DNA of 64,000 bases from NCBI GenBank assembly GCA_000004985.1, contig GG738874.1; one strand, 5' to 3'. A program made the translations under genes and the position numbers. Below, piece by piece: positions 16,276 through 52,600 of this stretch. Every line of letters starts with the position of its first letter. The first letter of the stretch is position 1. The stretch is from Naegleria gruberi. Its lineage: Eukaryota. The notes under the pieces were generated by a model. The model saw only the letters and a program-made list of their open reading frames with translations. It ran no database searches and was not told the origin of the DNA.

Positions 16276-16443
16276 AAATTATTTACAATCATGATTTTTG
16301 AGATTTGAGAAATACAATTATCATTAAATTAATCCAAAGAATATTTGTGCATTGACTCCAAATCTCTTTTCAATTTGATTTGCAAATCAGTTTGTATTTC
16401 AAAATTATATCAAAAATAAAATTCTATTCAAAAATTAAAAAAA

Positions 16444-23876: not shown

Positions 23877-25616
23877 ATGAGCAACAAACAAGTGCGGAAG
23901 AAACGGTCGGCATCGTCTTCAAAGAGGAAACGTGTTACACTGCCACATCAACCTTCGACTGAGGAGGAACAACCAACAATAGAGGAGGATATTGAATTGG
24001 ATCATACACCTAAGAAGGTGAAATCGGATGTTGCATTAGAGCCGGAGATTGAAACACCAACAGAAACTGAAGAACCTATAGTAGCAAAAGTAACTTCTGA
24101 TGATTCCGATGATGATCTGTTGAATGATACTTCATTTGCTCAATTTTGTGATCCATCTATTGTTAAGAAAGTAGGATTTAATGAAAATTGCTTGATTGAC
24201 TATGAATATGAGAGGAAATTAATTGAGCAACAGAAAAAGGATATGGATGAAACTTTAAGAGTAAAGAGGATCAATGATGAATTAAATAGATTGATACAGG
24301 AAGAAATTAATAACTCCAACACAAGAATTGATTTGAACAGTTTAACTAATGATCAAAAGAAAGATCACTTGAAGAAATTGATGGAAGGAACAGGTAATGA
24401 AATAGAAATATCGATACTTGAACATGTAAATAACGAAGGGAGTTATGATCAATATTATAAGGATCTTAGAATACAGTTATTTTGTGAGGAAATGAGTAGA
24501 TTCAATGTATTTAAAATTGCGGGCTATGTTTCTGTTAAATCTATTAATGCAGACAATTTTATTTCCGAGTTTGTTCAGTTCTTACAACCAAAATATGAAT
24601 ATTGTGCAGAAAGATATGATTTATTTTGCAATACTATTGAATATTCTGTGCAAGAAATTGGGTCAAATGATATTTTAGATGACTTAGGACTTGCTTGCTT
24701 GCAACCAACAAAGGAAATGAATCAACCTTTTGTTTCAGTTGAAGAGGCTGTTATAGTGCTTGGATTACTTGATAAGAAAAAGTGCATACGCCTACAACGT
24801 TTAATAAGAAAAACAGTAGACTCTTATGTAAATGGAAGGGAAATTGATATTAGTGAACATGATTTAGCTTGTCTAGCCATTCATTTTCTAATTTCTCAAT
24901 ACTTTAATTTCGGTAATTATATAAGCAAGCCAGACACGACTTTAAATCCATATTCAATCTATAGCTCCCTTTCAAAGACAAAACTTATTAATACTACAGA
25001 ATTAACTTTTATTTTGAAAAGTTTGGAAGGCGACTATGCCACGTTAATAACCAATTTATTCAATCTATTTGGTTTCTCTCAAGGAGAGGAAGATTCCACT
25101 CTTCAAGGTGAAACTACCATTGATTCTTTGAATTCAGTTATTCAAAAATATTTTCCTCCCACTTTTTCCAAGTTTTTAATTTCCAGACCATTTTACAATA
25201 CCAGTAAGACAATAATAACTTTTTACAAGAAGTTCTTTGCTTGTATGCTGATTAATGTAACTGGTATTACGGAAATTTCACATGAGGAGATATTTTCCAC
25301 TGATTACGAGTTCAACAACACAACCAATCGTAAATTAGTTACCTCTGTCATACCTATATTGGAACGTCTACTGGAACAATGTAAGGAAAGAAAAGAATTT
25401 GAATTCCCTCTTCTTCATCTCATCAAAAATGTTCTCTCTATTTTTGATATTTGTGCAGATCTTGGAAGAGATTCATCTTTTGTCAGAGATGAATTACTTA
25501 AACTTTCTACAAGTTTAAGACCTCATTTCCAATATTCTGATTTTACATTCCTCAAACTTCAATTCCCTTACCTAGATGCTTCGTTCATGCAAAATTTGAC
25601 TGATGAAGACAGTTGA
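23877..25616 (+). CDS. Hypothetical nuclear protein (579 aa) with a basic NLS-like N-terminus and an acidic region
   Basis: Single long ORF beginning 'MSNKQVRKKRSASSSKRKRV', with an acidic stretch 'TSDDSDDDLL'. No recognisable catalytic motifs. Confidence 0.4.
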   Translation: MSNKQVRKKRSASSSKRKRVTLPHQPSTEEEQPTIEEDIELDHTPKKVKSDVALEPEIETPTETEEPIVAKVTSDDSDDDLLNDTSFAQFCDPSIVKKVGFNENCLIDYEYERKLIEQQKKDMDETLRVKRINDELNRLIQEEINNSNTRIDLNSLTNDQKKDHLKKLMEGTGNEIEISILEHVNNEGSYDQYYKDLRIQLFCEEMSRFNVFKIAGYVSVKSINADNFISEFVQFLQPKYEYCAERYDLFCNTIEYSVQEIGSNDILDDLGLACLQPTKEMNQPFVSVEEAVIVLGLLDKKKCIRLQRLIRKTVDSYVNGREIDISEHDLACLAIHFLISQYFNFGNYISKPDTTLNPYSIYSSLSKTKLINTTELTFILKSLEGDYATLITNLFNLFGFSQGEEDSTLQGETTIDSLNSVIQKYFPPTFSKFLISRPFYNTSKTIITFYKKFFACMLINVTGITEISHEEIFSTDYEFNNTTNRKLVTSVIPILERLLEQCKERKEFEFPLLHLIKNVLSIFDICADLGRDSSFVRDELLKLSTSLRPHFQYSDFTFLKLQFPYLDASFMQNLTDEDS

Positions 25617-26053
25617 TACATCAGTAAGGAGCAATACTAATAGCAGTGTAATTATACAACAACAATTATACCTTACAAATTCGCATCAACCATTTTTGTG
25701 TTTAAAACAGTAGTTTTAATTTCAATTACGAAATGTATTTACTAAAAGGTGACATATGGATGACAGAATGCTGCAGAAATAATTCCACTACAATACTGAA
25801 TATTGGCGGGAGAAGTAAATCAAATCACATCAAACAAGAAATACTCTTCAGTCAACTCTTGTATTGCAGTGTATTCCTATAAATACAAAGCCAATTTTCT
25901 ACTAAAGTGAACTAAACAAAAAAAAGATACAACTCTTGTATTGTATATCTGTAAATTAATTGTAAACAACCTGTACATTCTAGGATTTTGTAAAATAATC
26001 TACTGTATTCAATGAGAACAAGTGCTGTAAAGAATGAGACATGGAATCGTGCA

Positions 26054-29000
26054 ATGATTCCTCGCTCTCTACTAATGCTAAGTTTGATTTTACTTTGGAC
26101 TGTTGCCTTTGTCGAGTCAAAGAAACAACAAACCAAGCCAACTAAATTTGCCAAGATTGTTTGCCCACCTAATTCAAACCTCACTTACACGTTCAAAACC
26201 ACTTCCTTAATTGGAAATCGTGGTCTTGCTTCAAGTAAGAAGGGTTCTTCTGGAAATGTTGAAACTCAACTTTCTGGTGAATTGGTTTTAACTTGTCCAT
26301 CCAGAAAAACCAATGAAAAGTCAGGTCTCATTGATAAGAGTGCTAAGAATAAGAATGTTATTCTCCTCACTTTCAATCAAGTATCCTTCCTCCAATTTCA
26401 AGGTTCTTCAAAGGGTGTCAGTGGTAGAAAATATCGTCGTCTTTTAACTTCAAAAGATATGACCAAGAAAATGAACGAATTTCCAATGATTTTCATTCAA
26501 TCAAAGACTGGTCATATTCAAAAGATGGTTTTCAGACAATCTGAAACTCGTTATATTCGTTCTTTAAAGAAGGGTATTCTCAGATTATTCACTACTGAAA
26601 CTAGACGTCAATCTCGTTCTCAAACTGATGGTGTATTGGGCAAGTATCGTCAAAATTATCACAAGCAATTTAGACGTGGAGTTGTCTCTAAGAAACGTAA
26701 AGGATTGGCAATTTATCAAAAATTCACTCAAGATGATTTCATTTCATTCCTCCCTCCAAGTAAGAGACATTTACATTATGAAGGTGCTCATCTTGTTAGT
26801 GTTTCCTTGAAAAAGAAGGTGATTAGAAAGGCAGGTTTGAGATTGAAGGTCACTTTTGGTCCATCAAAGGAAGTTCACTATGCTTTTAAGGAATTTGAAA
26901 GAATTGCTCATTCAAAGATTAAGAAGGATGATTTAGTTGATAATGAATCCAAGTCAAATGAATTGGAAACTCTATTTGTTGGATCTGTAAAGCTCAAAAA
27001 GGCAGAAAAGACAAGTCAAGATTTGAAAGAAGAAATTGGACAAGTAATTATCAATTTGGAAAAGAATGGTCGTGATGCCAAGTTGGGTTCTCAATTCCAA
27101 TTTGAGAATTCTTTCATGACTAACAAGTATGATAAGAAAGCTATGAATCAAATCAATAGAAGACGTTTCTCTACTAAATTCTTCCGTCGTTTGCTTAATG
27201 CTGCCAAGACAGATCCATCCTTGTCAAGAAATGCTAATTCCTTACTTTCAGCTCTTGCCAAGTATAGCAAATTGCATCCAATCAAGTCTGCCAAGATTTT
27301 GTTAAATGAATTGAAGAAGGGTGTTGACAAGTTACTCAATTCAAATGACATGACAGAAAAGCAAAAGATTTCTCTCAAGAATTATTTGGAAAGCGTTCAA
27401 AACTTGGTTGCTACTATTAGATCTACTCCAATTCAAGAAAAACTTATCAAACTCTCTACTTTGCATCCATATTTGGCTAAAAATTACATTTACTCATCCG
27501 TAGTTGTTCCAACTCCACCAAAGTCTGCCTTCTCTTTCTTAAAGCTATTGAAATCAAAGGGCCTTAGCGCATTCTCTCGTAGAGGAAACAAAAAGTTCAA
27601 ATTCTCATCTCAAATGAATGAAGATGTCAAGAAGAACGCCTTCATGGCCTATGCTGACCTCGCTCACAGAATTAGAGATAACAGAGTTCAACAACATATT
27701 GTCAAGGAAATTCTTACCAAGATTTCTGCTTCAACCAATTTGAATGAACTCCAAACTTATATTCATGCTTTGAATAATGCTGGTAAAGGTGTTGATATTG
27801 AAATTATCAGATCATTCTTGACTGATAAGAGAATTCCAGACACTATTAAGGTTTTACTTGCTGACAATTTGAAGAAGCGTCAAACTGATGAAAGTGCTGT
27901 CGATAGTTTGATCAATTCATTGGTTGTTACTAAGGGTTTGAGCTCTGTTGTTAAGGCCTCTCTCATCAATGCTCAAACTGAAAGAGAAAAGCATCTCAAA
28001 TCGGGTGCTTCAGTTACCCACTTTTCTAAGGCCCATAAGAAGAATAAGAGCGAGGAAATTAGAACTGCTGTCAAGAATTACTTGTACACTGTTGGTACTA
28101 AACAATCAGGTGAACAACTTTCAAAGGCATTAAAGATCAAGAATAAGACCTCTAATGCTCTTGCTAAAAAGGTCAAGAAATTCCAATCCAGCATTGAATC
28201 CCGTGCTCTCCTTTCTCATGAAGATTTGACACTTTTAGAAGCCTTTGATGAAATGGAAAGAGCTCAAGTTTTGGGTATTGGAAGATTTTTCAGAAGATTG
28301 GGTTCCAGAATTAAGAGTGCTGCTAGAGCTGTTGGTGGTGCTGTCCGTAGAGCTGCAAGGGTTGTTGGTAGAGGTGTTGCAAGAGCTGCCAGAGCTGTAG
28401 GTAGAGCAGTTGTTACAGGTGCCAAAGCTGTTGCTAAGGGTGTTGTTAAAGCAGCCAATTGGGTCAAAGAAAAGGTTGAAGCAGCTATTAATGCTGTAAC
28501 GAATGTTGTCAATAAGATTAAGAGCTATTTCGGTCCTGCCACCTTTGCAAATCAACAAGCTTGCATCAAAGTTAGTGTTGACAGTGAAATGTGTTTGAGA
28601 GAATCAACATTCATTGAATTCATTAGAAAACAAGGTGACATGAGTACAATTAAGAAGGCCAAACATTTCAGTTTCGAAGCCCTAGTCGGATGTCAAAGTA
28701 TTAATGTTTACACTGGTTTCCTTGTCTATGCAGGTGCTTCATTCGAATGTAGTGCTGAAAATAGTGGAATTGATATTCTCTTGTTGGCTAAAGCCAAGTT
28801 AAATGCTAAGCTTTTCAGTAAGGAATTTGTTGTCATTGATGGTAGTGCTGAATTGACCAAGAGAGGTGAACAACCATTAACTGATAACATTTATCTCAAA
28901 GTTTTCCAAACTACATTTGTAAATGGTAACTTTGTTCCTGAAAAGATTAGAAAGGTCATTGATGCATGTTTCTCTGAAACTAAACCAATCTTTGAAAAGA

Positions 29001-30409
29001 GATTCCCAAAGCTTTTCAGTTACAATATCCAAATAATGGCTGGACCTATCCCAATATCCTTCAATTTTAATACTGCTTTAAACACAGGAGTTGAGTTGAA
29101 ATATGGTATCTGTCTTGCAAAATTGGAAGCCAGTTCTTCATTGGAGCCATACGTTTCATTGGAACTTACAGGTTCTGCCTCAGTTGGAGTGCCAGTTGCC
29201 AAAGCTGGAATCAAATTGACTGCAACCATTACTTACAGAATTATTCCACGTATTGCTTTTGAAAAGTGTAATTTGTGTGCCATGTTGCAACAACGTTTAG
29301 ATGGTGTGAAGTTTGATGTAGGTTTGTCTGCAACATTCATGAAATGGACAAAGAATTGGGATTTCTACTCAAAGCAAACAAAGCCATACGTCAAGACCTT
29401 ATTCGAAAAGTGTGTTAGCTCAACTGGATATAAGCCATCCAGCAACGATTCTCCTCTCCAATTTACTAACAAACGTGATTCAGAACAACCAGAAGCTGCT
29501 GCTTCTACCGATAGTAGTGCTCCAGAACAGAATCCACAAGGATACAATACTGAAGGTGCCCCAAGTACTAAGAATGTTGCTACTGAAGGTCCAAGTAAAT
29601 TGAGAAAGAAGGTTGGTAGTGCATTGTCAAAGAAGGCCACTTCCTATCAATCCATGTTTGGTCCAAATGCTGAAAAGATTGCAGTTTCTGGAGGTGCTCC
29701 ACCAAAACCAAGCAAGCAAACTTTGAGAAGTCCAGTCACCAGTCAAAGAGATGTTGTCTGGTCAACTGCATTCTTGAAGCAAAAGGTTCCAGCTGCAGCT
29801 ATTAAGGATCTAGGACTTGAAAAGTTGAGAAGACTTCCAAAGGAATACTTTGAGATTAAGAGTGAAGATAGAGCAAAGATTCCAAATGAAATTTTGCTTC
29901 TCCCACCTGCTGATTTCATTAAATTCCTTGGAAAATTACCAGATCGTTATCAAAAGTCAACTGAAACTGAAATACCAAGCAATGCATCTGTCAAGGTTTG
30001 GTCTTCTGAAGTTTTAGAAAAGCAAATTCCAAAGCAAATTTATAGTAAGGTTCCACTCAGATATTTGAGACACTTGTATCCTGATATTCTTCAAATCCGT
30101 AAACGTGTCATGTTACAAATCCCATCAACATCCTATACTCAAGGAAATAAGGGAATTGTCACTTGGGTCTGTAAAAATTATGGTGATTTGTGTAAGACTT
30201 TAGTTGAATCTATCAAGAAGAACGAAGAGGTTGACTATTCTGATTTGCTCAGTTTGATTCCAGCCGAACAACCAAAAGTTGTCTCCTCGAAATCATCACC
30301 AAAATCAAACAACTCAACTAAGGCAAGCAGAAATCCTAAAGGAAGAGATTATTTCTCAAGAGGAAGACCAGTTGAACTCGACATCGAATTCCATAGAATT
30401 AAACAATAG
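26054..30409 (+). CDS. Large secreted protein, possibly of the large-lipid-transfer-protein (vitellogenin/apolipophorin-like) family; contains an internal Arg/Ala/Val-rich amphipathic repeat
   Basis: The signal peptide is 'MIPRSLLMLSLILLWTVAFVES'. The N-terminal 'TYTFKTTSLIGNRGLASSKKGSSGNVETQLSGELVLTCPS' and 'ETRYIRSLKKGILRLF' resemble the start of the LLTP N-sheet. The single ORF is about 1450 aa with a basic C-terminus. The family assignment is tentative. Confidence 0.5.
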   Translation: MIPRSLLMLSLILLWTVAFVESKKQQTKPTKFAKIVCPPNSNLTYTFKTTSLIGNRGLASSKKGSSGNVETQLSGELVLTCPSRKTNEKSGLIDKSAKNKNVILLTFNQVSFLQFQGSSKGVSGRKYRRLLTSKDMTKKMNEFPMIFIQSKTGHIQKMVFRQSETRYIRSLKKGILRLFTTETRRQSRSQTDGVLGKYRQNYHKQFRRGVVSKKRKGLAIYQKFTQDDFISFLPPSKRHLHYEGAHLVSVSLKKKVIRKAGLRLKVTFGPSKEVHYAFKEFERIAHSKIKKDDLVDNESKSNELETLFVGSVKLKKAEKTSQDLKEEIGQVIINLEKNGRDAKLGSQFQFENSFMTNKYDKKAMNQINRRRFSTKFFRRLLNAAKTDPSLSRNANSLLSALAKYSKLHPIKSAKILLNELKKGVDKLLNSNDMTEKQKISLKNYLESVQNLVATIRSTPIQEKLIKLSTLHPYLAKNYIYSSVVVPTPPKSAFSFLKLLKSKGLSAFSRRGNKKFKFSSQMNEDVKKNAFMAYADLAHRIRDNRVQQHIVKEILTKISASTNLNELQTYIHALNNAGKGVDIEIIRSFLTDKRIPDTIKVLLADNLKKRQTDESAVDSLINSLVVTKGLSSVVKASLINAQTEREKHLKSGASVTHFSKAHKKNKSEEIRTAVKNYLYTVGTKQSGEQLSKALKIKNKTSNALAKKVKKFQSSIESRALLSHEDLTLLEAFDEMERAQVLGIGRFFRRLGSRIKSAARAVGGAVRRAARVVGRGVARAARAVGRAVVTGAKAVAKGVVKAANWVKEKVEAAINAVTNVVNKIKSYFGPATFANQQACIKVSVDSEMCLRESTFIEFIRKQGDMSTIKKAKHFSFEALVGCQSINVYTGFLVYAGASFECSAENSGIDILLLAKAKLNAKLFSKEFVVIDGSAELTKRGEQPLTDNIYLKVFQTTFVNGNFVPEKIRKVIDACFSETKPIFEKRFPKLFSYNIQIMAGPIPISFNFNTALNTGVELKYGICLAKLEASSSLEPYVSLELTGSASVGVPVAKAGIKLTATITYRIIPRIAFEKCNLCAMLQQRLDGVKFDVGLSATFMKWTKNWDFYSKQTKPYVKTLFEKCVSSTGYKPSSNDSPLQFTNKRDSEQPEAAASTDSSAPEQNPQGYNTEGAPSTKNVATEGPSKLRKKVGSALSKKATSYQSMFGPNAEKIAVSGGAPPKPSKQTLRSPVTSQRDVVWSTAFLKQKVPAAAIKDLGLEKLRRLPKEYFEIKSEDRAKIPNEILLLPPADFIKFLGKLPDRYQKSTETEIPSNASVKVWSSEVLEKQIPKQIYSKVPLRYLRHLYPDILQIRKRVMLQIPSTSYTQGNKGIVTWVCKNYGDLCKTLVESIKKNEEVDYSDLLSLIPAEQPKVVSSKSSPKSNNSTKASRNPKGRDYFSRGRPVELDIEFHRIKQ

Positions 30410-31792
30410 ATAACGTTTCATGAATAAATTTCAATTAAATTCATATTAGCTAGAATTATTATTGGACTTGAAATCTTTGATATGCAACATTCCATTGTTG
30501 TTTCAAAGCCAAAACGAATTGATCAATGTTACCATCATAGGTTTGGTCCAATTGTTGGGGAAGTCATCAAAATTACACACCCCGTGTTTTTACCACCCTC
30601 TCCCCTCAATGTTATTTCCCTGTTCAATTCCTGTTGCAGGAATGAATTTTCATTGTAAAATCTCCCACCACCAAAACCCGTTACATCAATAAATATTTTG
30701 ATGAGAAAAAATTCATCAAAGCACTCCACACCAACATTCACCATCTTTTATTATTTATCTGCACTCATGTAATAAGTACTCCATCCTTCAGGTGGATTTC
30801 TTCTCATCATTCTGTTTCTTCTTCGCCAGTTTTCAAGCCAAGTCGACATTTCCTACCAAATTCCACAAGTACCAAAAGGTTAAAGTTGAGGGTAGGTTCT
30901 CCACCTACAATTACATCCAATGGTGATGTGTTTGGTGGTTTGCCTAAGTGCTGGTAGAGAAAACATACTCGGGTGGTAAATCTTCCATGCAGCCAACTGT
31001 TGTTCACCTCCAACAAGATGTTCTTGAAATTACTACTTTTCTTGCTTTCAACAATCTCACAACCATCAAGATGCTGTTTTGGGAGCAACAACCATAATTT
31101 CGGTCATTTCATCGAAAAATCTACCTGAACAAACAATCAATTTCCTGAACGTTTTCACATTTCATGCTATTTCCAAATAATAAACATGACTTTGAATTAG
31201 TAGTATTATTAATTATTTAATTAATTTAAGAATTATTTTAATTTTGTAATTATATTATTTATTAATATTAATTATTTCCTTTTTTAATTTTTCTCAACCA
31301 CCCTCATGTCCGACGTATTAAAAGATACCCAATTTTCAAAACACCCCTCCTCCAAGTGTAATTTTGATGACTTCCCTTGTCGTTTTCGTCTTTTGCAGTT
31401 TAGTTAAAGTAATTTTAGCAAAACAACTGAATACATATTATCTACTAATATTAAAATAAGTGGTCCGAATGTTTATGTAATATGGAGGAGGAGATTATTG
31501 ACAACAATTGCTTAAATTTTCATCATCATTAAAATTATTTCCCGCCATCACAAGCCATTAAAATTTTTTTTAGAGAATTTGACTACCAAATAAAATGAGG
31601 TATTTTGTTGTTTCTCAATTACGGCAGTATATTGTGTTATGATGTTTTCGATGTGGCATGATGAGAGGAATGTAATCAGAGATTTGCCATCAAAGGAGGT
31701 CAAACAAGAAAGCAAATGGTGCTTTCCTTGCAGGGCCAAATTTCATGTATATTATTAATTAATTATTATTAGAAAAAGAATTTTATGATGAC

Positions 31793-31842
31793 NNNNNNNN
31801 NNNNNNNNNNNNNNNNNNNNNNNNNNNNNNNNNNNNNNNNNN
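31793..31842. other. Assembly gap (run of 50 N)
   Basis: Literal N characters lie immediately upstream of the in-frame open 5' end of the cyclase gene. Confidence 0.99.
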
Positions 31843-34800
31843 GCAATTAATCAGATACAATCTGCTTTTATTAATGCTATGATTAGTTTAAAAGAGTCGA
31901 ATAGCAACACAGAGAGAAATTGGAAGCTGTACATATTATTTACTATTGTCCATATTCATGTTTGGATAACAACAATCATTGTTGGAATACAAGGAAACTT
32001 TAAAATGGGCCTCTACGGAAATTGGGTGTGGAAGATATTGAACTATTTAGTGACATTATCTTTGGATGATTTGCCTGATAGTGTCATGTCATATAATGCA
32101 ATGATAGGTGTCTCTTCTATTTGTATTACCTTCTCAGTTTTTGGGCTTCTGATATTTTACTACTCTGCCAAACAATTTCAAATTGCTAGCAGGCATATGA
32201 AATTTCTTCAATTTATAATGAGAGTTTATGGTTTTTTAACGTTTTTTGCAAGTTTTACTATGGTTTTTATTATGACCTCTTTTATTGATTGTAACTATTC
32301 TAGTTCAGTAATTTTTGAAGGATTTGATCAACCACAAATGGTTCTCAATAGATTTCCATCTCAAATGTGCTTCTCTTCTACAAATATTACAATGATTGTT
32401 TTGAGCTATGTCGGAATTCTTGCATTAATGTTATTGACATTCATGAGTGTTTTTACTAGAGGAGAGACACATGTAAAAGCAAGTAGTAGCCCCTTTGTTT
32501 CAGAGCATGTGCTATTTCAAGTAGCAGTTTTGATAATTACCCAATTACAAATAACCCTTAACTATTCTATCCCTTTTGAATACTCGTACCTGAGAAGTAT
32601 ATCTCATATAGTCTTATCACTAATTTTATTACCTATACTATTTTACTATTTACCCTTCTTTAAAAGAGTTGATAATTCAATAATGGTTGGATTATGCCTT
32701 GCCAAGTCCTTCCTTGGTGTCGCACCCCTAATTTCTTTTCTTGTAAATACACAAGGAGATTGGGGGATGGGTTTAGGATTTTCTCTTTCTGGATTTGGAT
32801 TTATTCTCACTGGTTTCTTGATTGGTTTTATTGTTACGGAAATATATACTAGACTTCTCTACTATAGAGCAAGAAAAATTATTATTACTGCCTTAACAGA
32901 ATGTGAGGTTTTGATTATTGATTTTGATGAAAATACTAGTGATGCTGATAGATATCGTAACCTTAGATCACTTTTTGAGAGAGAAGCCTTCTCGTTATTT
33001 AAACTATTCGAAGAGAAGAAAATGATGAGACACTTGTCAATGTTTTTCAAATTTTCAATGGTGTCTGGCAATAAGGGAAACTTGGATGATAGTTTTCTAT
33101 TTTCTGATGTTGATTTAGTTGTATCAATAATCAAATCTGTGGCGCAACAGAAGAACTTTCAAAATTACCCTCAGCTGATCTTAACATCAAGCATAGTCTG
33201 TGCACATTTTTGGGACCCTGAGAAAAATGGATTGGTATCTCATACTCCTCAATCTTCATCGTATGAATACGCAGTTGCTTTACTTAAAAAGATCAAGGCA
33301 AGTCAATTAGGATTTTTGTCTGATTTAGTAATGAAAAGTTTATTGAAACAATACCATACTGCATCACAAAATGAAAGTAGTGGAAAACTATCAGAACTGA
33401 AGGGTATTATTGATATTAAGGAGTTTATTTCAAAGTTAGGAAAGAAAATGGAAGATATAACAGTACAAAGGAAAATATTTTGGAAAGAATTGATGAACGA
33501 TGTTGTAGACTATGGCAAAATAATCAACATTAACAGAACAATTGCAAAATTAACCCTAGAGTGCAACACTACATTTGAAAACTTGATGAGCTATTTCCAT
33601 AGTTATGACAAAAATCTTCTCAGATTATTTGCCAGTTTCAATGAAAAGGTTTTATTCAATCAACAAAGAGCTGATGAGTTGTATCAAGATGCATCCTTGA
33701 TAGAAGATGAAGATTCGAAAAGAATTTCAGAAAAGCAAGCTCTGACATCATCAATCAACAATACCTCAAACAGTAGTCTTCAAAGTCATAGGTTTAAACC
33801 TGGAAATAGAATTTTACCTATAAGAGTAGGAACAAGAGTTAATGTTGACCTTGAAGCCGATTCAAATAGAATATCAGCTAAAATATTCGATGGTTTGGAG
33901 AATGGAGATTTTTCGAAAGAGCTAAACGAAGATCCAACTGCACTCGATCTTGCTGAGGCTGCTGATTCCCCAGAGATTAAAAAGGAAAATTTGATAAGAA
34001 CTGCACTAACAACTCCATTGAAACCTGTTGCCATCTACTTTTCTTACATTTCTTTGATAGGACTAATTATTTTAATGTTTTCTGGAGCTGTTGCACTTTC
34101 ATTATTTACAGTTATTACCTCGACCAAGAACCTTACAGATATTAAGCAATCATGCATTCCAGCATTGGGTTCAGTTCGTTTGATTTCTGATTTAAGAGTA
34201 AACCAGATTTTTAGAACATTATATTCAGGTAATACAACCTTCTCCTCCACTCTACAAAAATTTGGATTTTCTAGTATGAATGATACTGTAAATTACCATA
34301 GAGGAAAAACTTTGGATACCATTGAAAAATTCAAGCATTTAGAAAAATTAGCTTTTAGTGGAAAATGGAGTGCTGAAATGTTTCACGATTATTCAACTGA
34401 CTCTACAGAAATGTACTATCCGGAAATTCCTCACCACAACAAGGAGGGACATTTTATTAATGCTAGACCAAGAAATATGTCTGTTTCTGGTGTTACAAAC
34501 ACTATGATTCAGACTGGAAAAGATTTACTAACCTATTCTGATTCTCAGTATAATGAAACAATAGGTTCTTTTCAGTTTATGTATCTTTGGCACAATAGAG
34601 ATACCTTACCAGATATGTACGGAAAATTCTGTAATACTATTTCGTCTAGATTCTACTTTGGTATTCAAGATATGGAGAGTGTGTATGGGTACTATTTGAC
34701 AGCTATTGCAATTGTGACAGTACTGATATTCATATTTATGATTGCAATGTTCATTTTCCTCAATAGGAAATTAAAAATGATTCTCAAATTGTTTGAGAGA

Positions 34801-37110
34801 AACCTTCCCAAAGATGTAATTGGAAAAGTTTTTCATGAAATCAAAGCCGATGATACAGTACATGGATCTTCTAACCATTTATTGCAAAACCCATCACTGA
34901 AGATTTCAATTCTGTTTATGCTACTGCTACTAACATTTTTAATGGCAACTATAGTATGCTTTGTAATTGTGATTTCAACCATTAATAGTGCAAAAGAAAT
35001 AATTGGAAATATAGATGCTTCAACCAAGATTGCCACCACTTCTCAAAGAGTTTCATTGCATATTGAGGAAATTTATATTTTTGGTATTTTGCAAACAAAT
35101 ATGTATCCCATCAACAATGAGGAATTACTCACCCCTGAACAAATTTTTGAATATCACGAAGGAATGGATCAGTTAACAATTGACTTGGATGAACTTTGGA
35201 ATCGCCTTCTGTATGGTGATATTAATACTGGAGATGCTGTTCTTGTTGGATTATATCCTGAAATAGACAAGATTATTGAGGGTTACAACTGCACCAATAA
35301 TACATCAGCCAATTGTGGAGAAAGTTTGAACGACTTGCTAAACAACCTCATACTCAAAGCAACCAAGATTAATGAAATTTATGTTGCCCTTGATAAGAAT
35401 GAGAGAATAATATTTGATGAATTTTTTTCTACAATTTACATGATTAGCAATAGAGTGACAGATTCAATGCTTAATTTCATTGATATCTATGTCTCCAGTG
35501 TTCAACGTAACGATTCCTATGTTATAGTAATTCTGTTTGGAATAGGTGGCCTTTTCATAATGCCAGTTTTGTTGATCTATATTTTGAACGTTCTTTCTGG
35601 TCAATTGAATGAAATTTACTCATTACGTCTCATTTTGAACTATGTGAACATTGATATACTTGAATCAAAGGAACAACTGAGAAACTTTATTCTTCACAAC
35701 AATCTGTCACGAGAAAAGAAAAAGAAAAATCAAGTTTCTAATAATGTAGAAGAGGACAAGGTCAGAAATATTCTAAATGCCTCTGTCGAAGGTTGTTTAT
35801 TATGTAATCATAATTATGAAATTGAAATATACAATCCAGCAGCTCAAAGGTTTGTTTTTTCTACTTTACTATTTATCTAAAACAAAATTTTAAAGAATGT
35901 TTATGAAACAAGTTAATGAAGTTATTGGATTGCCAATGTGGACTCTATTTGAAAAGAATTGCCAGGATAGAATCAAACTCATCCTTCAAAATCTAACAAA
36001 AACTACTGGTAGTATTGCAAATGGTGAAACAGCAGAACTCGATGGACTAAGAAAAAATGGAACTCTCTTCCCAGCACGTGTTAATATATTTTGGACAATG
36101 TTCGATTCTAAACCAGTATTCACTTGTTTCATTAAGGATGTAACAACAGAGAAAAAGCAAAATGCACTGTTGGCCGAAGAGAAGAAGAGATCTGAAAATC
36201 TTCTCAGAAATATTTTACCAGAATCTGTAGCAAACAAATTGAAGAATGGAGATACATTCATTGCAGAAAAACTACCAGATATTACATGTTTCTTCTCAGA
36301 TATGGTTGGGTTTACTACCATATCTAGTCATTTGAATGCTAATGAGATTGTTAAAATGTTGAGCTCCATAGTCAGTGGATTTGATAAGTTAACAGATAAG
36401 TATGAATTGGAAAAGATTAAAACAATTGGAGACAGTTATTTCTGCGTTGGAGGATTACATCAAGCGAGTGACCACCCTGAGAGAGTAGTTAGATTTGCTA
36501 TTGAAACCTTTGGAGTGGTTAGGGATTATAACAATTCACTATTTAAGGATACAGATCCCCAATCTGTTTCTCAAATAGATATTAGAATTGGTATTAATAC
36601 TGGTTCAGTTGTTGCTGGAGTTATTGGTATTAAGAAGTTTGCATATGTAAGTTAGAAATTTAGTTATTCTATTAATTGATTCCTGTTAATTTAACAAAAT
36701 AGGATTTATGGGGTGATACTATTAATGTTGCTTCGAGAATGGAAAGTAATTCTAAACCTGGCCGAATCCAAGTTTCCAGATCAACCTATGAAAGAGTTCA
36801 CGATCTAGGATTTGAATTTGAGGAAAGATCAATTGAAGTGAAAGGAAAAGGAGTAATGAGGGCCTATCTTATCCACGAAAAACACCACACAAGTGCCACA
36901 TTGACCAACAAGGATATTGAAATAGTTACGGGAGATACACAGTACTTTGCAAGTCCTTTATCTGGTAGTGAATCACCCCTTCCACCAGCCTCTAGCTCCA
37001 ACCCACCCTCAATTAAATCATCACCCAATAATAGTGAATCTAAGAGAGAAGCTATTGATCCAATGGCTTATGATCGTTTAGCAACATTTACTATTGGACA
37101 AAAGGACTAG
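31843..37110 (+). CDS. Polytopic membrane protein fused to a PAS domain and a class III adenylyl/guanylyl cyclase catalytic domain; exons 31843(open 5')..35849, 35896..36646 and 36703..37110
   Basis: About 1330 aa with at least 12 hydrophobic helices in three clusters. A phase-2 GTTTGT donor at 35850 and a TTTTAAAG acceptor at 35895 join it in frame ('...NPAAQR|MFMKQVNEV') to a PAS-like module ('ELDGLRKNGTLFPARVNIFWTMFDSKPVFTCFIKDVTTEKK') and to the cyclase homology domain ('FFSDMVGFTTIS', 'KIKTIGDSYFCVGGL', 'IRIGINTGSVVAGVIG'). A GTAAGT intron at 36647..36702 splits '..KKFAY|DLWGDTINVASRMES'. Confidence 0.8.
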
Positions 37111-37114
37111 AGCT

Positions 37115-38770
37115 TTATTTCAGTAAACCAGCATATTCATTTCTCTTCTCTAGTCTCAATTTGTAGTACAATCCTGCAATTGTAACACCAACACCACATA
37201 ACAAACCTATTGCCAGAATAACAACAATTGCAATAATTACACCAGTTGAATTATCACTGGCATAGTACTTGTCATAAACTGCTTGTACTTCGCTATTGAC
37301 TTGGTTTCTATATTTTCCAATCTTATTTACATTCTTGTCAGGATAAACTCTATTGGTCAAAAAGATTGTGAATAAATTTCTTTCTGGATCTCCACAAACT
37401 TGAGTACCAGAAAATCCTAAATGCAAGAATGTTTTCTTTGAGAGACTTCCACATGATCCATTTCCTTCAGCATTGGTATCCCTGTAATAATTAATTATTC
37501 GAATTAGTTCAGTTTTTTAACTTACCATCCTAAAGCTCTAGAGCTTTGTTGAGTGTTCTTGACAGATGTAAAAAGTGAGAAAGTTGTTGAATCAATGAAA
37601 TTTTCCCTTCTTCTGAACATTAATTCGTCCATAAAATTGTAAACATCTGGCAATGTTGAAAAAATTCCAGCCTTAAAGTGTTAATTATTTAACATGATTA
37701 TTGTCAACTTACATGTCCTGAAATACCGCCCTGTGCATAACAATTTTCATCAGAAACATATCCCTGAATCAAATCATGATGATAAACCTCGTCAAGCCAA
37801 GCAGGTGGAATATTTACATCATATCTATTTGGAATGTATCCACTATTTGACATTCCAAGTTGTTCCAAAACATGTTTCCTCACAAATGCTTCAAAATAGC
37901 AAGTTTCATGACCAGGAGCATTCAATCCAATTTGTGATACGCAATCACTTCTCAAATCATCATTTGAAATTTGCAACAGATTCATATTCTTTTTAACAAT
38001 TTGTCCAATAATATACATGAGTGAAATCATAGACAAATCACTATAGACATATTTTTCACCTATAATTATTTCTCAGTCACCCAACAAATAATATTTAACA
38101 TACCTATATTGTGAGCCAACTTTTCATTCAACCAAGAATTAAAAATCTTATTCGAACAAGTAAACACTTGTGGTGGATGATAAATCTCCGTAGCACTACA
38201 ATTAAACTCAACAGTATTATAGGTAGGATTTGGATCTGGAGCCAACCCTGAATTGTGCAATAATAAATTCTCAATAGTAATTCCACTCTTTCCATTCACT
38301 CCAAATTCAGGAAAATACTTTACAACACTATCATGCAATGAAATCAAATCCTTCTGATACAACAAGGCAACTGCTGATGTGGTCGAAATTACCTTGGTCA
38401 CCGATGCCATATCAAATTTGGTCGTATTTGTATTCATCACTCGTTGTTCATCATCATTGTAAGTAAACTTTCCAAAGGCTTTAGAATAAATTGGACCATC
38501 CTTATTGGCCACTAAAAGAACAGCACCCGGAAAAGCCTTCTCAGCAATGCCACTATTTATAATATTCTCCAGATTGTCCCAACGATGATCATTTGTTTGA
38601 CCATTCACTTCATTGAAAGTAATAAAAAGTATCAACATCATAATCATCATGAATATTTTCCTTGTCATCATCATGTTGTCGATGGAACGACAAGTGCTGC
38701 AAGAGGATCCGATTCGATTTTTGATGCTTCCTTTTAATGATGAAGAATGCAAGGATGGCAATTTGGGCAT
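37115..38770 (-). CDS. Beta-lactamase-like serine hydrolase (LACTB/EstB-type) with a signal peptide and a C-terminal TM anchor; about 4 exons
   Basis: The S-x-x-K active-site motif is 'FDMASVTKV'. 'HLGFSGTQVCGD' is the KTG/H.G box. Exons are joined by GTAAGT donors (introns about 37997-38037 and 37491-37530). The C-terminus 'GVIIAIVVILAIGLLCGVGVTIAGLYY' is a TM helix. Confidence 0.7.
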
Positions 38771-41973: not shown

Positions 41974-44229
41974 TTACTTGAATACTTTTACAATTTGAGT
42001 TATTGGTTTTCTACAGGTAGGACATGATTTGTTAGTGAGCTTGTTGGCACAGCCATCACACATTATCATGTGACCACATGGAACCAAAACTACATTAATC
42101 TCCTTATCCATACAAACGATGCAGTGATTATTTTCTTCTTGCTGCTCGTGGTGATGATCAGTAGGTGTGGTGATTTGAGAAATATTGGCTGGTTCTGGAA
42201 TTCTTTCTTCCTCTGCAAGCCAATCTCTATTAGTAAAGATGGATGGGTCCTCTGTTTGGATTCTTGAATTGGATGGAGTTATTCCACTATTAGAAGAAGA
42301 GGATTGATTGTTGTTGTTTGATTGACCTGTGTGTTTTTTTCTAGTTTGTACAATTTCTCTCTTTCTCTCACCGGCAAGGAATGCAGTTCTGTTTGACTTT
42401 TTCATTCTGTAGAGAAGTGAAGAGAGTTTGTCTGTTTCTCTCATTGATGAATCATTTTCACATTGTCTCAAATCTTCATCTAGGTCTTGAGTATTGTTTA
42501 CAAATGCATTCATTTCTTCTTGCTGACCGTATGACTTGGAGACTTCTTCCAAGAGTTTGTTCATACTCAAAAGTTTCAATCTGGCATCTCTAATTTTGCC
42601 ACTTTCAGCAAGAATGGAGCTTTGTAAAACTGCATTTAAGGACAATACAGAAACATCTACATTTTCTAAGGAAACACTTCTGTCAGATGTAATCTTAACT
42701 GGTTGATTAACCACTCTCACATATTTGCATCCGTTTGATGAGGCAGTATAGTAAATTTGTGCTTGAATCAATCCCTTATCCTTCTTATCATCTTTTACTT
42801 CCATTTCAATGGTAACATCTGTCTCAGCTGTTGCACTGCTAATTGATTGAGTAACCATTGAATACTTATCCAATTTAGATACCTCCTGATTCTTTGGTGA
42901 TATTGGATTGGAGAAGAGCATTTGTACTTTAACATCGGTTGCAATAACTGGATTATCAATAATTTGTCTCATTTGCCTTCTTAATTCAACTGGTTTTACA
43001 ATGTTTGTCAAACCTCCAGTATTATCAGCGAGCTTTCCAATTAATGACAAGTTACAGTTTGAGCCCTCAACACCAAAAACATTAATATTAATGCCATACT
43101 CGCAGGATAAGTTTGCAATCTTTGTGCAACACTCTTCTTGATCCTTGATACTTTTAGCTCTCTTTGAAATTTCCTCACTAATACCAGCCAAACCTGTTGT
43201 TGCAACTCCGTCAGTGCACAGGATAATTTTGCTACCTTTTTGCTGACTTGCAATACCCAAACTAACAAGTAAGGCAGGGAACAGTGCTGTAGCACCATCT
43301 TCTGCAATTGAGTAAATATACTCAATCAAATTATCATTGGCAAGTGAAACATTGTTTAGAATAGAGGTTCTATAAGATTGTCCTAACTTGAACAATCCTT
43401 CGAAATTATCAAGTAACACAGCTGGGACACTAGCTCTAGTTTGTGATCTGGCGTCACCAATAATTTGCACATTGCTTGAGAAGGTAACAATGGCTATTCT
43501 CTTATTGGGAGATTCTCTAGCTGTTTCAGTAACTTGAATATCTAGAGCCATCTTGAGACAGTCCATTCTAGAAACATAGGATGAAGATCGACTTTCGTTT
43601 GGAAGAAATTGATTATGAACAGAAACTTCAGATTCTAATCCCAATTCTCTCAGTAAACGTCTATTCTTTTCTTGTTGGTCGGATTGTCTCAAATCCAAAT
43701 TAAGAACAGAGTAGCTTGGTAATTGCTCAGATTGACACATACTGCCAGAGATATCAATACAAAAAACTAGTAAGCCGTCATCATCATTTACAGAACTCTC
43801 TTCCAACTTGTGTTCAATCATTTCTGGAATGGATGAAACATTGGAAGGTAATACATTTTCAGTATCGCAAAATGAGCATTTCCAATGATTTCTCTTTTTT
43901 TCACCATTTAACGCAGCTTTACAATTTGAACAGGTAACAAGAGGGCCTAGAGCTTTTGGACATTCTGCTAAAAGGCCATTCATACACAAGGCAGCAACAT
44001 TGGCATCAGATTTTGGATGTTTGATAGTTTGTTCGTTTGAAAGATCAATAGAGGATGAACAAGCTTGTGAAACTGTTGAGGCAGTCTTTTTTTCACTCTT
44101 CTTGAAAAGTCTCGATAAGAAACCTCCTCCACTAGACTTTTTTTTGCTTGTGGAAGATGATACTGAGCTACTTTGGGCATCATCGAGAGGAACATTTGAA
44201 ACAACTATTTGTTTTCTATAAGAATCCTC
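41974..44229 (-). CDS. vWA-domain RING-type E3 ubiquitin ligase (zinc-ribbon N-terminus, vWA/MIDAS domain, C-terminal C3HC4 RING); the frame is open upstream through a relic Ras switch I/beta2 segment to an acceptor at 44229
   Basis: The zinc ribbon is 'CSNCKAALNGEKKRNHWKCSFCDTEN'. The vWA MIDAS motif is 'LLVFCIDISGSM'. The RING is 'CIVCMDKEINVVLVPCGHMIMCDGCANKLTNKSCPTCRKPI'. The first ATG is at 43983, but the frame has no stop back to 44229, where it starts 'EDSYRKQIVVSNVP...'. Confidence 0.65.
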   Translation of the reverse strand, partial: EDSYRKQIVVSNVPLDDAQSSSVSSSTSKKKSSGGGFLSRLFKKSEKKTASTVSQACSSSIDLSNEQTIKHPKSDANVAALCMNGLLAECPKALGPLVTCSNCKAALNGEKKRNHWKCSFCDTENVLPSNVSSIPEMIEHKLEESSVNDDDGLLVFCIDISGSMCQSEQLPSYSVLNLDLRQSDQQEKNRRLLRELGLESEVSVHNQFLPNESRSSSYVSRMDCLKMALDIQVTETARESPNKRIAIVTFSSNVQIIGDARSQTRASVPAVLLDNFEGLFKLGQSYRTSILNNVSLANDNLIEYIYSIAEDGATALFPALLVSLGIASQQKGSKIILCTDGVATTGLAGISEEISKRAKSIKDQEECCTKIANLSCEYGININVFGVEGSNCNLSLIGKLADNTGGLTNIVKPVELRRQMRQIIDNPVIATDVKVQMLFSNPISPKNQEVSKLDKYSMVTQSISSATAETDVTIEMEVKDDKKDKGLIQAQIYYTASSNGCKYVRVVNQPVKITSDRSVSLENVDVSVLSLNAVLQSSILAESGKIRDARLKLLSMNKLLEEVSKSYGQQEEMNAFVNNTQDLDEDLRQCENDSSMRETDKLSSLLYRMKKSNRTAFLAGERKREIVQTRKKHTGQSNNNNQSSSSNSGITPSNSRIQTEDPSIFTNRDWLAEEERIPEPANISQITTPTDHHHEQQEENNHCIVCMDKEINVVLVPCGHMIMCDGCANKLTNKSCPTCRKPITQIVKVFK

Positions 44230-50482: not shown

Positions 50483-52600
50483 CTATTCCATGGCACTTGC
50501 TAACTTTTTCAAATCTGTCCAATCTTGCTCGGATAAACACTCACATCCAGGATAATTCTTCCATTTTTCAATATTGTCAAAAACTTTAGAATTTCTTTCA
50601 ATAGCTCTCCTCAGTAGATCCTTATTGAGAAACACTTGATAACCTGGATGACACAAATTATCTACAAAATTATCTGGTGAACTATCCCACAAATGCTCAC
50701 TGAATGCTTGACATGCTGTAATTTCCTTGATTGGAACACCCATTTCCATTGCCAGATCAATCACTTGTCTATTTTCTCTAAATGTCTGTCCAAAATACTT
50801 GTAGCAAACTTTGTTTTTCCTAATGCATTTCATGACAAAGTCTATTGGAAGATACTTATAGTATGATTGTGGATGGTAACGACTGTCCATTAACCAATCA
50901 CAGAAATCCCTATTATTTAGTAACAGGTCGTGATGTATGTAAGCGAGTGGTGTCAGTCCATGCCATTTGACTGCTTGTTTCATAAGGTCAATATCAAATG
51001 GGAATGCTTTACAAACAGCATAACAAATTGAATTACTTTCTTTCCTATAGTGATATGAAGGTGTTGTCAATATATGGGTCATTATTTCTCTATCTGAGTA
51101 ACAAGCAGAAGGAAGTTTTTCAAAATGAATATTAACCCCAATTTTAAAAAGCAGTAGCTTAACAAGAGATGCCTCTTTCCTTAGCTCATCTGATAGCTTA
51201 TAATAAAAAGAATAATTCTTACATATAAATAGTGAAGCAAATTGTAGATCGGTAATAAGTGGTGCTGCTCTGCAAAGTTCTTGGAAGTTAAAAGAGGCGA
51301 TATTGAACTCTATTTCATTCTTTAGAAACTTGTAAAATCTTATAATGGAAAATGGGTAGACTGAAATAATTTGTTTCATCAAGAGTTCTGATGATAGATT
51401 ATTCTCATCATCAACTGGAATACCGTTAGTGACAAGATATTCTTTCAATATTTCTTGGTCATTTAACAAAGCCTCTCCAATGCTAAGAATGGAAATCATT
51501 CTCTTTCTATTACTGTGTAATTGAAAATATCTCAGTACAAAATTCTTATCATTTCTCAATTCTTCTTTACATGTAATGAGACCATTTGAATGGTTTTTTA
51601 AAATGTACTTTTCTTCCTCTGTTTCCATTGAAAGATTTTCCAAATGAGGATATTTCGATTTTGTTAATTGGAGCAAATGATCTTTACAAGCACGATATTT
51701 TTCACAACATCCAATGGAAATAAATTTCAGAGCTACATTTGGATTTTCAATTGAATTAAAAAGATTGGTATGATTTCTCAAAAGGATACTTTCTTGAATT
51801 TGGAACGGAGACTTTTCAATAATTATTTTGAAATTGTTGCAAATTGAGTCAATTCTAAATTCAAGACCTCTCTCTTCCAATAAATGATAAAATTTGAGAA
51901 CCATTAGTGGTCTATTCTTCAAAATCTCTTCAATCAATTCAAAAGTATTCAATGAATCAAATCTTTCATGTCTCCACTCTTTTTCAGACATCATTCCTCT
52001 TCTCAATACTTGTGAATCGGATAATAAAGACTCTCCCACATAGTGCAGTGTGTTAAATCTTCTTCCCAACACTTTCATTACAAATTCCTTATCATTTCTC
52101 AAGTCTGAGCTGGCAAATTGTAAAGCCAATGGATTGTGTTTACATGCATCAAGAACAATCTCTCTATCATTTCTAAAATTAGTAGCTAATTGTAATGCTA
52201 AAATGTCCTTCTTGACTAATTCTGAAACTACATGTCTTATTTGGAATAATTTCTCTGGTAGTGCATTTAATGAATAATATTTAAAGTTAAACAATTGTTT
52301 GGTCAACTCGGGAGATTTTGCAAGAGCAGAAACCAAATTCACCCAATCCATTTTCGGATGAGAGCCAATAACAAACAACAAGCTCGGTTGATTTTCATAA
52401 TCTCTAAATAAATTATTAATATGATAATACATAGATTTGTAATTATTTTCAGTAAGAATTCTAACAATTTTGTCAAGTTTCTCCATTCTTTCCCAAATAG
52501 ATTCTGCTTTGTCTTTCCTTTTGACCTTTCTTTGATTCATCTTTTTATAACTCTTCAAGAATGGATATTTAAACTTGTGTAATTTGCTTGATACTATCAA
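50483..52600 (-). CDS. DUF4116-repeat protein (705 aa); a possible extra 5' exon lies in 52569..52805
   Basis: Recurrent roughly 30-aa repeats of the form 'ALQFASSDLRNDKEFVMKVL', 'ALKFISIGCCEKY', 'FVLRYFQLHS' and 'DLQFASLFICKNYSFYYKLSDELRKEASLVKLLL' match the DUF4116 repeat pattern (..L.fAS..LrnD.e.vl.av). Confidence 0.6.
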   Translation of the reverse strand: MIVSSKLHKFKYPFLKSYKKMNQRKVKRKDKAESIWERMEKLDKIVRILTENNYKSMYYHINNLFRDYENQPSLLFVIGSHPKMDWVNLVSALAKSPELTKQLFNFKYYSLNALPEKLFQIRHVVSELVKKDILALQLATNFRNDREIVLDACKHNPLALQFASSDLRNDKEFVMKVLGRRFNTLHYVGESLLSDSQVLRRGMMSEKEWRHERFDSLNTFELIEEILKNRPLMVLKFYHLLEERGLEFRIDSICNNFKIIIEKSPFQIQESILLRNHTNLFNSIENPNVALKFISIGCCEKYRACKDHLLQLTKSKYPHLENLSMETEEEKYILKNHSNGLITCKEELRNDKNFVLRYFQLHSNRKRMISILSIGEALLNDQEILKEYLVTNGIPVDDENNLSSELLMKQIISVYPFSIIRFYKFLKNEIEFNIASFNFQELCRAAPLITDLQFASLFICKNYSFYYKLSDELRKEASLVKLLLFKIGVNIHFEKLPSACYSDREIMTHILTTPSYHYRKESNSICYAVCKAFPFDIDLMKQAVKWHGLTPLAYIHHDLLLNNRDFCDWLMDSRYHPQSYYKYLPIDFVMKCIRKNKVCYKYFGQTFRENRQVIDLAMEMGVPIKEITACQAFSEHLWDSSPDNFVDNLCHPGYQVFLNKDLLRRAIERNSKVFDNIEKWKNYPGCECLSEQDWTDLKKLASAME

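Follow-up and report, generated by a model that had tools for sequence, protein, structure and literature searches.

The closest described systems are the transmembrane adenylyl cyclases (TMACs) of Trichomonas vaginalis, where ~123 such proteins of 1450-1700 aa were reported (Cui, Das, Smith & Samuelson 2010, PMC2914791). Their layout comprises 6-8 N-terminal transmembrane (TM) helices, a conserved cytosolic domain of ~300-400 aa, two extracellular domains bounded by 4-6 TM helices, and one C-terminal class III catalytic domain; two catalytic domains, produced recombinantly, formed cAMP without measurable cGMP, and ~46% of the family were found to be pseudogenes (PMC2914791). In the same work, the family was held to be unique to trichomonads, and neither a PAS domain nor TmcB-type repeats were mentioned (PMC2914791). 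Here, a stretch of 64,000 nt of Naegleria gruberi DNA (contig GG738874.1), hereafter the window, was found to contain a plus-strand gene that runs from an assembly gap to a stop codon at 37108-37110, and which is read from its sequence as encoding a receptor-type class IIIa adenylyl cyclase with TmcB-type TPR repeats and a PAS domain (probability of roughly 0.8). The protein is not of a new kind: it belongs to a cyclase family that has been described in Trichomonas and predicted many times before in Naegleria and related organisms. The window uses the standard genetic code, is AT-rich (GC ~34%) and has short GT..AG introns. All positions are given in its numbering, and residues (aa) are counted from the first visible one after the gap.

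The comparison with trichomonad proteins was carried by the N-terminal module (N-module), which precedes the PAS and cyclase domains. An alignment of 22 heterolobosean N-modules was compared by hhalign with those of three Tritrichomonas proteins bearing PAS and cyclase domains (P0006, P0008 and P0011), giving a probability of 98.9% and an E-value of 2.2e-17 over 1071 collinear columns (query 6-1296 against 37-1172 of P0006). Moreover, BLASTP of the window protein (aa 948-1333) against P0006 gave an E-value of 8e-6, and the pairwise BLAST matches sat at corresponding positions in the TPR and ectodomain-2 regions. Judged by these alignments, the N-module is homologous from end to end between Heterolobosea and Parabasalia, the comparison being with Tritrichomonas proteins and not with T. 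vaginalis itself. This is at odds with the claim of 2010 that trichomonads alone possess the family. The window protein resembles the TMACs in its length class, in the predicted order of eight TM helices, cytosolic domain, four TM helices with two ectodomains and cyclase, and in its Lys/Asp specificity residues, activity having been measured for two TMACs; it also shares the PAS domain with the Tritrichomonas relatives. In contrast, the identity of the N-modules is only ~13%, and the window gene has at least two introns, unlike the intronless Trichomonas genes. An earlier note, made from the letters alone, had taken the membrane module to be of no known type. This did not stand, given the match to the TmcB-type profile PF25474, the published TMAC layout, the hhalign alignment to Tritrichomonas and at least 19 representatives of the same architecture, while the profile search and topology prediction that it had proposed for the N-terminal part returned the TmcB TPR repeats, the Tritrichomonas homology and ~8+4 TM helices.

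Relatives were collected by an exhaustive search (aa 1-1200) of 1.84 billion representatives, after which the query was split into six segments (8TM, TPR, ectodomain 1, ectodomain 2, PAS and cyclase), each being searched against the matches. A total of 119 relatives were found, at least 19 representatives of which had all six segments, many others being fragments or 8TM+TPR only. Named members with the full architecture belong to Naegleria, Willaertia and Acrasis, and share with the window protein the same six-segment arrangement and the same Pfam set. The family includes proteins of N. fowleri (XP_044567394.1, XP_044558499.1 and FDP41_003313, here P0003), N. lovaniensis (XP_044555706.1, XP_044555414.1 and C9374_012303), Willaertia magna (KAL9657039.1 and others) and Acrasis kona (KAL0483827.1). 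In N. gruberi, the members were XP_002672713.1 and XP_002670998.1 (full architecture), XP_002671034.1, whose cluster representative spans only the 8TM+TPR part, and XP_002669010.1. The closest heterolobosean members were 41-46% identical to the window protein, with N. fowleri P0003 as the best match, compared to ~27-29% for the other N. gruberi members. Furthermore, a stand-alone 8TM+TPR protein of 817 aa was found in N. fowleri. Word-indexed searches with the N-module (aa 1-730) or with a 15-sequence profile returned no matches, and the known Naegleria proteins with 46% identity were missed too; this null result is therefore a failed collection of candidates and no evidence of absence. At the homologue loci of N. 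fowleri and N. lovaniensis, no match was detected for those neighbouring ORFs of the window that were tested. At the N. fowleri locus (L002), a reverse-transcriptase/RNase H open reading frame (ORF) of a retroelement was located at 14502-16334 on the minus strand, ~0.9 kb downstream of the homologous cyclase and near the contig end.

The structure of the window gene was read as follows:

31785 to 31792, plus strand: candidate start codon (ATGATGAC) immediately 5′ of the gap, read from the sequence, with an in-frame TAG 15 nt upstream (31770-31772).
31793 to 31842, no strand: assembly gap of exactly 50 N, covering the 5′ end of the coding sequence (sequence).
31846 to 35849, plus strand: visible part of exon 1, aa 1-1334 and 2 nt of codon 1335 (open frame; tblastn back-mapping 100%).
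35850 to 35895, plus strand: intron 1, 46 nt, phase 2, GTTTGT...AAAG, of the GT..AG type (sequence, homologue alignment and PAS_9 continuity).
35896 to 36646, plus strand: exon 2, from the third base of codon 1335 to aa 1585 (splice model; tblastn back-mapping).
36647 to 36702, plus strand: intron 2, 56 nt, phase 0, GTAAGT..ATAG (sequence and homologue alignment).
36703 to 37110, plus strand: exon 3, with the C-terminal tail and the TAG stop at 37108-37110 (splice model; tblastn back-mapping).

The splice model rests on homology and domain continuity. Frame 3 is open for 1344 codons from 31846 to the TAA at 35878-35880, the remaining two frames being stop-rich, and this in-frame TAA falls within intron 1, whose single AG is its terminal one. 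Once spliced, the coding sequence measures 5163 nt and encodes 1720 aa with no internal stop, terminating at the TAG. The PAS_9 match was obtained as one stretch (aa 1315-1418; profile positions 2-102 of 103) that spans the junction at aa 1335. Moreover, N. lovaniensis and N. fowleri provided three full-length homologues with 45-46% identity across 95-96% of the query and the same Pfam set, and both junctions were free of indels in their alignment. At the first junction, the window reads '...IYNPAAQR|MFMKQ...' where the homologues read '...IYNPSAQRMFGKN...', and at the second, 'KKFAY|DLWGDTINVASRMES' is invariant and ungapped. When two of these homologous proteins were mapped back to their genomic loci, introns were found after aa 408 and 1515 in the N. 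fowleri gene, and after aa 394, 1497 and 1677 in the N. lovaniensis gene, unlike the positions in the window gene. In each species, a single exon (aa 408-1515 and aa 394-1497, respectively) runs from just past TM8 through the TPR repeats, both ectodomains and the PAS domain to the transducer helix. Since the relatives encode the membrane-to-PAS stretch in one exon, the fusion is independent of intron 1 of the window, and on these alignments the membrane-PAS-cyclase fusion is genuine.

Thus stands the proposal of the earlier note that the 46-nt phase-2 intron at 35850-35895 unites the membrane ORF with the PAS-cyclase ORF, which is borne out by the PAS_9 continuity, the ungapped homologues and the single exon of the relatives, and its junctions (35849|35896 and 36646|36703) are both backed by the ungapped alignment. 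The same note had given the positions of a TAA at 35878 and an ATG at 35897, both of which are read in the sequence and define another possibility, namely two separate genes, in which a membrane protein ends at 35878-35880 and a soluble PAS-cyclase begins at 35897. The two codons are only 16 nt apart, and a mechanical ORF caller reports 31879-35880 and 35897-36655 as distinct ORFs. However, the PAS match begins ~20 residues before the junction (aa 1315-1334), which would put a start at 35897 inside the PAS fold, and the homologues are continuous through this part, which lies within one exon in their genomes. Furthermore, the ORF from 35897 stops at 36655 in intron 2, so that it would still need that intron removed. 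Two separate genes are therefore considered extremely unlikely, and the single fused gene is retained.

According to this splice model, the cyclase gene has three exons as far as it is visible and encodes a protein of at least 1720 aa, its full length, with the part hidden by the gap, being probably ~1780-1800 aa. The N-terminus is lost in the gap, as had been pointed out before, and the homologues carry 55-78 extra residues upstream of the aligned 'INQIQ', ahead of the point at which the window ORF comes out of the gap. The ATGATGAC is no more than a candidate start codon of the cyclase. A tblastn search with the homologue N-termini against the DNA upstream of the gap found nothing credible, and cannot confirm this start because these N-termini are too variable. 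Exact look-up of the product of the 35897-36655 ORF and a metagenome scan with the 35 nt following the gap gave no match. Moreover, neither a word-indexed search with the full protein nor the exhaustive search with aa 1-1200 retrieved a protein of N. gruberi above 50% identity. Judging by the protein sets searched, the locus seems to have no gene model, and the obvious reason is probably that the assembly gap sits inside exon 1.

The absent gene model might also be explained if the locus were a decaying paralogue (pseudogene) in an over-duplicated family. Such decay is common in Trichomonas, where ~46% of the family members are pseudogenes (PMC2914791); besides, neither search gave an N. gruberi protein above 50% identity, and the 5′ end is hidden by the gap. 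Against this stand 1720 open codons over three exons with canonical splice sites, and the intactness of all catalytic residues and of the most conserved family motifs, while the gap inside the gene is a simpler reason for the missing model. A pseudogene is thus regarded as very unlikely, and the locus is better read as an intact cyclase gene.

The N-module comprises the following parts:

31921 to 32859, plus strand: N-terminal polytopic domain with ~8 TM helices (aa 26-338), from hydropathy and invariant columns.
32860 to 34047, plus strand: cytosolic helical domain (aa 339-734), ending in a variable low-complexity tail, from hydropathy and Pfam.
33355 to 33720, plus strand: TmcB-type TPR repeats, PF25474 (aa 504-625), Pfam E-value of 1.6e-12.
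34048 to 34761, plus strand: TM9, ectodomain 1 (~200 aa, helical) and TM10 (aa 735-972), from hydropathy.
34762 to 34917, plus strand: basic cytosolic juxtamembrane linker (aa 973-1024) with a conserved 'LPKDVIGKVFHEIK' motif, from family conservation.
34918 to 35577, plus strand: TM11, ectodomain 2 (~180 aa) and TM12 (aa 1025-1244), from hydropathy.

The topology is a prediction from the hydropathy profile, in which ~8 TM helices appeared in aa 30-338 and four further ones at ~aa 735, 954, 1025 and 1226. With 12 TM helices, a cytosolic position is predicted for the N-terminus and for every large soluble domain other than the ectodomains. The PF25474 match reached 47.9 bits against a cut-off of 27 and covered profile positions 4-124 of 125. 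In the linker, the 'LPKDVIGKVFHEIK' motif was among the most conserved 15-mers of the N-module, and K+R residues numbered nine versus five D+E. The conserved 'LRLILNYVNIDILES' comes after the TM11-ectodomain 2-TM12 unit, conserved juxtamembrane motifs following TM10 and TM12. The two TM-ectodomain-TM units aligned with each other in register from end to end (hhalign E-value of 1.4e-4 and probability of 53%; BLASTP E-value of 0.043), a weak alignment that possibly reflects an ancient internal duplication. Moreover, the TM9-ectodomain 1-TM10 unit was helical in the AF2 model (pLDDT ~65-85), and the Cys pair C770/C929 of ectodomain 1 was retained in 95% of the family. A second pair (C149/C175) was found in the loop between TM3 and TM4, each Cys being retained in 86% of 22 family sequences. 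The parts that hold these conserved Cys pairs are predicted to be extracellular, and the ectodomains are probably disulfide-bonded helical bundles. When the N-module was searched against the PDB by profile and by sequence, no related solved structure was found, the matches to MetI (E-value of 0.033, 55 residues, partial) and GPRC5D (E-value of 0.13) being rejected as marginal. We know of no family member with a solved structure or a known ligand.

The polytopic nature of the 8-TM domain, together with the existence of stand-alone 8TM+TPR proteins of ~800 aa (e.g. N. fowleri XP_044559251.1), would also suit a transporter or channel coupled to cAMP synthesis, like the channel/ATPase-cyclase fusions of alveolates, rather than a ligand receptor. 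However, no Pfam transporter or channel family was matched at E<=1, and the PDB profile search yielded only the marginal, partial MetI match. Furthermore, the most conserved element of the polytopic domain is the Cys-containing extracellular TM3-TM4 loop ('SFIDCNYSSSV.F.GF..PQ.VLNRFPS.MCFSS') rather than an intramembrane polar motif. A transporter or channel is accordingly thought unlikely, and a receptor-type module is preferred.

Downstream of the N-module, these features were placed:

35788 to 36145, plus strand: PAS domain (aa 1315-1418), with intron 1 inside, PF13426 (PAS_9), E-value of 6.6e-18.
36155 to 36265, plus strand: signalling helix or cyclase-transducer element 'KKRSENLLRNILPESVANKLKNG' (aa 1422-1458), from the alignment with AC8 and AC9.
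36266 to 36876, plus strand: class III cyclase catalytic domain (aa 1459-1643), with intron 2 inside, PF00211, E-value of 1e-52.
36299 to 36301, plus strand: metal-binding D1470, from the motif alignment, as are the next five residues.
36419 to 36421, plus strand: substrate-specifying K1510.
36431 to 36433, plus strand: metal-binding D1514.
36703 to 36705, plus strand: substrate-specifying D1586.
36724 to 36726, plus strand: transition-state N1593.
36736 to 36738, plus strand: transition-state R1597.
aa 1644 to 1720, plus strand: Ser/Pro-rich C-terminal tail, from the sequence.

The PAS_9 match scored 65.3 bits against a threshold of 27, and a similarity to the PAS domain of FixL was also detected (E-value of 1.5e-6), a resemblance that would hold at the fold level only. 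A LOV-type or heme-type PAS was considered. None of the three close homologues ('ENKERI') keeps the candidate Cys of 'NCQDRI', which speaks against conservation of a LOV-like Cys, and the sequence allowed no cofactor assignment. In AC8 and AC9 (PDB 8buz and 7pd4), the counterpart of the transducer 'SENLLRNILPESVANKL' in the alignment is the helix that precedes C2, and the element also gave a match below threshold to the C-terminal end of HNOBA (E-value of 0.012). The catalytic domain matched PF00211 with 178.8 bits against a cut-off of 21.9, over profile positions 4-182 of 183. All six class III catalytic residues are found in this one domain, the metal-binding and transition-state ones lying in FFSDMVGF / KTIGD / DTINVASR and aligning to AC8 and AC9, with FFSDMVGF starting at aa 1467, KIKTIGDSY at aa 1508 and DLWGDTIN at aa 1586, and the catalytic motifs are identical in the three closest homologues. 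The best solved relatives were the C2 domains of AC8, AC9 and AC5 and the homodimeric mycobacterial Cya (E-values of 1e-62 to 1e-46). No second cyclase domain was detected in the window by tblastn, and the protein had one PF00211 match only. In class III cyclases, a single chain with both active-site halves works as a head-to-tail homodimer. As the window chain holds both halves, a head-to-tail homodimer with two active sites would be its expected working form.

A guanylyl or dual-specificity cyclase has to be weighed at this point, since the Pfam family spans both activities, the homologues bear database names such as 'Guanylate cyclase domain-containing', and specificity calls from sequence are occasionally wrong. 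However, Lys1510 and Asp1586 form the ATP-specifying pair, whereas Glu and Cys stand there in the animal guanylyl cyclases of the same match list (KVETIGD and YCLFGD). Moreover, the best PDB matches are adenylyl cyclases, and the two Trichomonas family members assayed produced cAMP and no measurable cGMP. Such an activity is therefore hardly to be expected, and adenylyl specificity is kept. On the catalytic side, the earlier note had described a PAS domain with a single class III domain, in agreement with the PAS_9 and the one PF00211 match, and its three motifs (FFSDMVGF, KIKTIGDSY and DLWGDTIN) are all present in the translation. Its preference for adenylyl over guanylyl specificity and for a homodimer is supported at the level of sequence, by Lys1510/Asp1586 as opposed to Glu/Cys and by the single domain with both active-site halves. 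It had also stated that the protein is neither a P-type-ATPase fusion nor a mammalian-type cyclase of 2x6 TM, in accordance with the lack of an ATPase match in Pfam and the one PF00211 match.

Other cyclases share parts of this organisation. The catalytic domain and the preceding transducer align with those of mammalian AC5, AC8 and AC9 and of mycobacterial Cya/Rv1625c (E-values of 1e-46 to 1e-62), and enzymes of the Cya/Rv1625c type are likewise single-domain homodimers, the dimer being an expectation for the window protein. However, the anchors of these cyclases (6 TM or 2x6 TM) are unrelated to the 8+4 TM helices with ectodomains of the window protein, which also has PAS and TPR domains that they do not possess. 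Furthermore, mammalian AC5, AC8 and AC9 are C1/C2 pseudo-heterodimers, unlike a protein with a single catalytic domain. The alveolate fusions to ion channels or P-type ATPases and the single-TM receptor cyclases of trypanosomatids are also protist membrane proteins with class III domains, but they differ from the window protein in topology, and no E1-E2 ATPase, ion-transport or periplasmic-binding-type domain was found in the latter by Pfam. In particular, E1-E2_ATPase, Hydrolase and Ion_trans gave no Pfam match at E<=1.

Several points weigh against the reading as a receptor-type adenylyl cyclase. The support for the splice junctions consists of homology and domain continuity only, and the N-terminus is hidden in the gap, while the activity of this and of other heterolobosean members is predicted. 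In addition, the HH score between Heterolobosea and Tritrichomonas could be inflated partly by the composition of the TM helices. Finally, with ~46% pseudogenes in the Trichomonas family, the intact ORF makes function likely and is no proof of it.

If the receptor-type adenylyl cyclase is nevertheless accepted, the chain would consist, in order, of a domain of ~8 TM helices with its N-terminus inside, the cytosolic TmcB-type TPR domain, two TM-ectodomain-TM units, the PAS domain, the transducer helix and one catalytic domain. The catalytic domains of two chains would pair head to tail, and the dimer would have two symmetric active sites, like the mycobacterial homodimers. A stimulus may act on the ectodomains, on the polytopic domain and/or on the PAS domain in the cytosol, and the resulting conformational change would repack the dimeric signalling helices and alter the relative orientation of the catalytic domains, thereby setting the cAMP output.

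The cytosolic domain links this protein to the TmcB family, as its TPR-type domain lies above the PF25474 gathering threshold, and the stand-alone 8TM+TPR proteins of Naegleria match PF25474 too. To our knowledge, TmcB itself has no cyclase domain. In Dictyostelium, tmcB ('tiny macrocysts protein B') is described in PMC12750705, citing Muramoto et al. 2005, as a regulator of the cAMP pathway in sexual development, and a TmcB-related protein was reported in the cilia of Chlamydomonas (PMC11244166). A 'Rosetta stone' interpretation can be drawn up, by which the TmcB-type 8TM+TPR module would be an ancient eukaryotic sensor directly controlling adenylyl cyclases, in cis in Heterolobosea and Parabasalia, and in trans, by way of TmcB proteins that stand alone, in Dictyostelium, whose tmcB mutants are altered in cAMP signalling, in Chlamydomonas cilia and in Naegleria, with the ectodomain units as the ligand-binding part of an uncharacterised receptor class. 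This interpretation is put forward tentatively, and is rather doubtful at present. A protein of Cyanophora paradoxa (P0131, 2176 aa) was also found, in which a TmcB-type membrane/TPR module is joined to PAS and diguanylate-cyclase-sensor-like domains and no cyclase is matched, which extends the pairing of the module with PAS beyond the 'excavates'. If the 'Rosetta stone' interpretation were true, the Cyanophora protein would fit a wider signalling logic leading from the TmcB module to PAS and to an output.

Regarding the rest of the window, a multi-exon gene of the beta-lactamase family (serine hydrolase) lies at 37115-38770 on the minus strand, convergent with the cyclase gene. Its stop codon (37115-37117) is only 4 nt from that of the cyclase, so the 3′ untranslated regions either overlap or are extremely short. 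Directly upstream of the cyclase gene, two long plus-strand ORFs (26012-30409 and 23877-25616; 1465 and 579 aa, respectively) had no Pfam match, the second corresponding to XP_002676032.1, a hypothetical protein of N. gruberi. Five ORFs of the window outside the cyclase gene, this one included, were identical to N. gruberi proteins of one 401,612-bp scaffold (XP_002676116.1, XP_002676124.1, XP_002676031.1, XP_002676037.1 and XP_002676032.1). A fragment or exon of a G-protein alpha subunit gene (14654-15649, plus strand) is located 16 kb upstream of the cyclase, with no evidence of a functional link. Moreover, a 1025-aa ORF at 9584-12661 on the minus strand, with amino-acid-kinase (aspartokinase-like) and Orn/DAP/Arg decarboxylase domains, looks like a fusion of two lysine-pathway enzymes. 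Also on the minus strand, a P5-type cation ATPase (53302-57900) was found in two long ORFs, presumably with an intron between them, along with a protein with a Sec23/24-trunk (vWA-like) region and a C-terminal RING finger (41974-43989) and a DUF4116-repeat protein (50483-52600). A DUF4116 gene is present near the N. lovaniensis homologue as well (L003, 19215-19604), which may be a coincidence. Furthermore, contig k127_533517 (L001) of the ENA metagenome ERZ929261 encodes a GDPD protein identical to the product of the window ORF 17246-18292, which places N. gruberi, or a strain almost identical to it, in that sample.

Naegleria species, including the pathogen N. fowleri, have roughly 80-100 cyclases with which they sense their environment, and the TMAC-like family makes up a sizeable share of them. 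In terms of annotation, the locus adds a large and seemingly intact signalling gene that is apparently absent from the N. gruberi protein sets searched. Moreover, an architecture described as unique to trichomonads turns out to be common to Heterolobosea, and would be either ancient in the 'excavate' lineages or transferred between them. Finally, the cytosolic domain ties the cyclase to TmcB, whose Dictyostelium founder is described as regulating cAMP signalling, and this offers a testable hypothesis on the stand-alone TmcB proteins.

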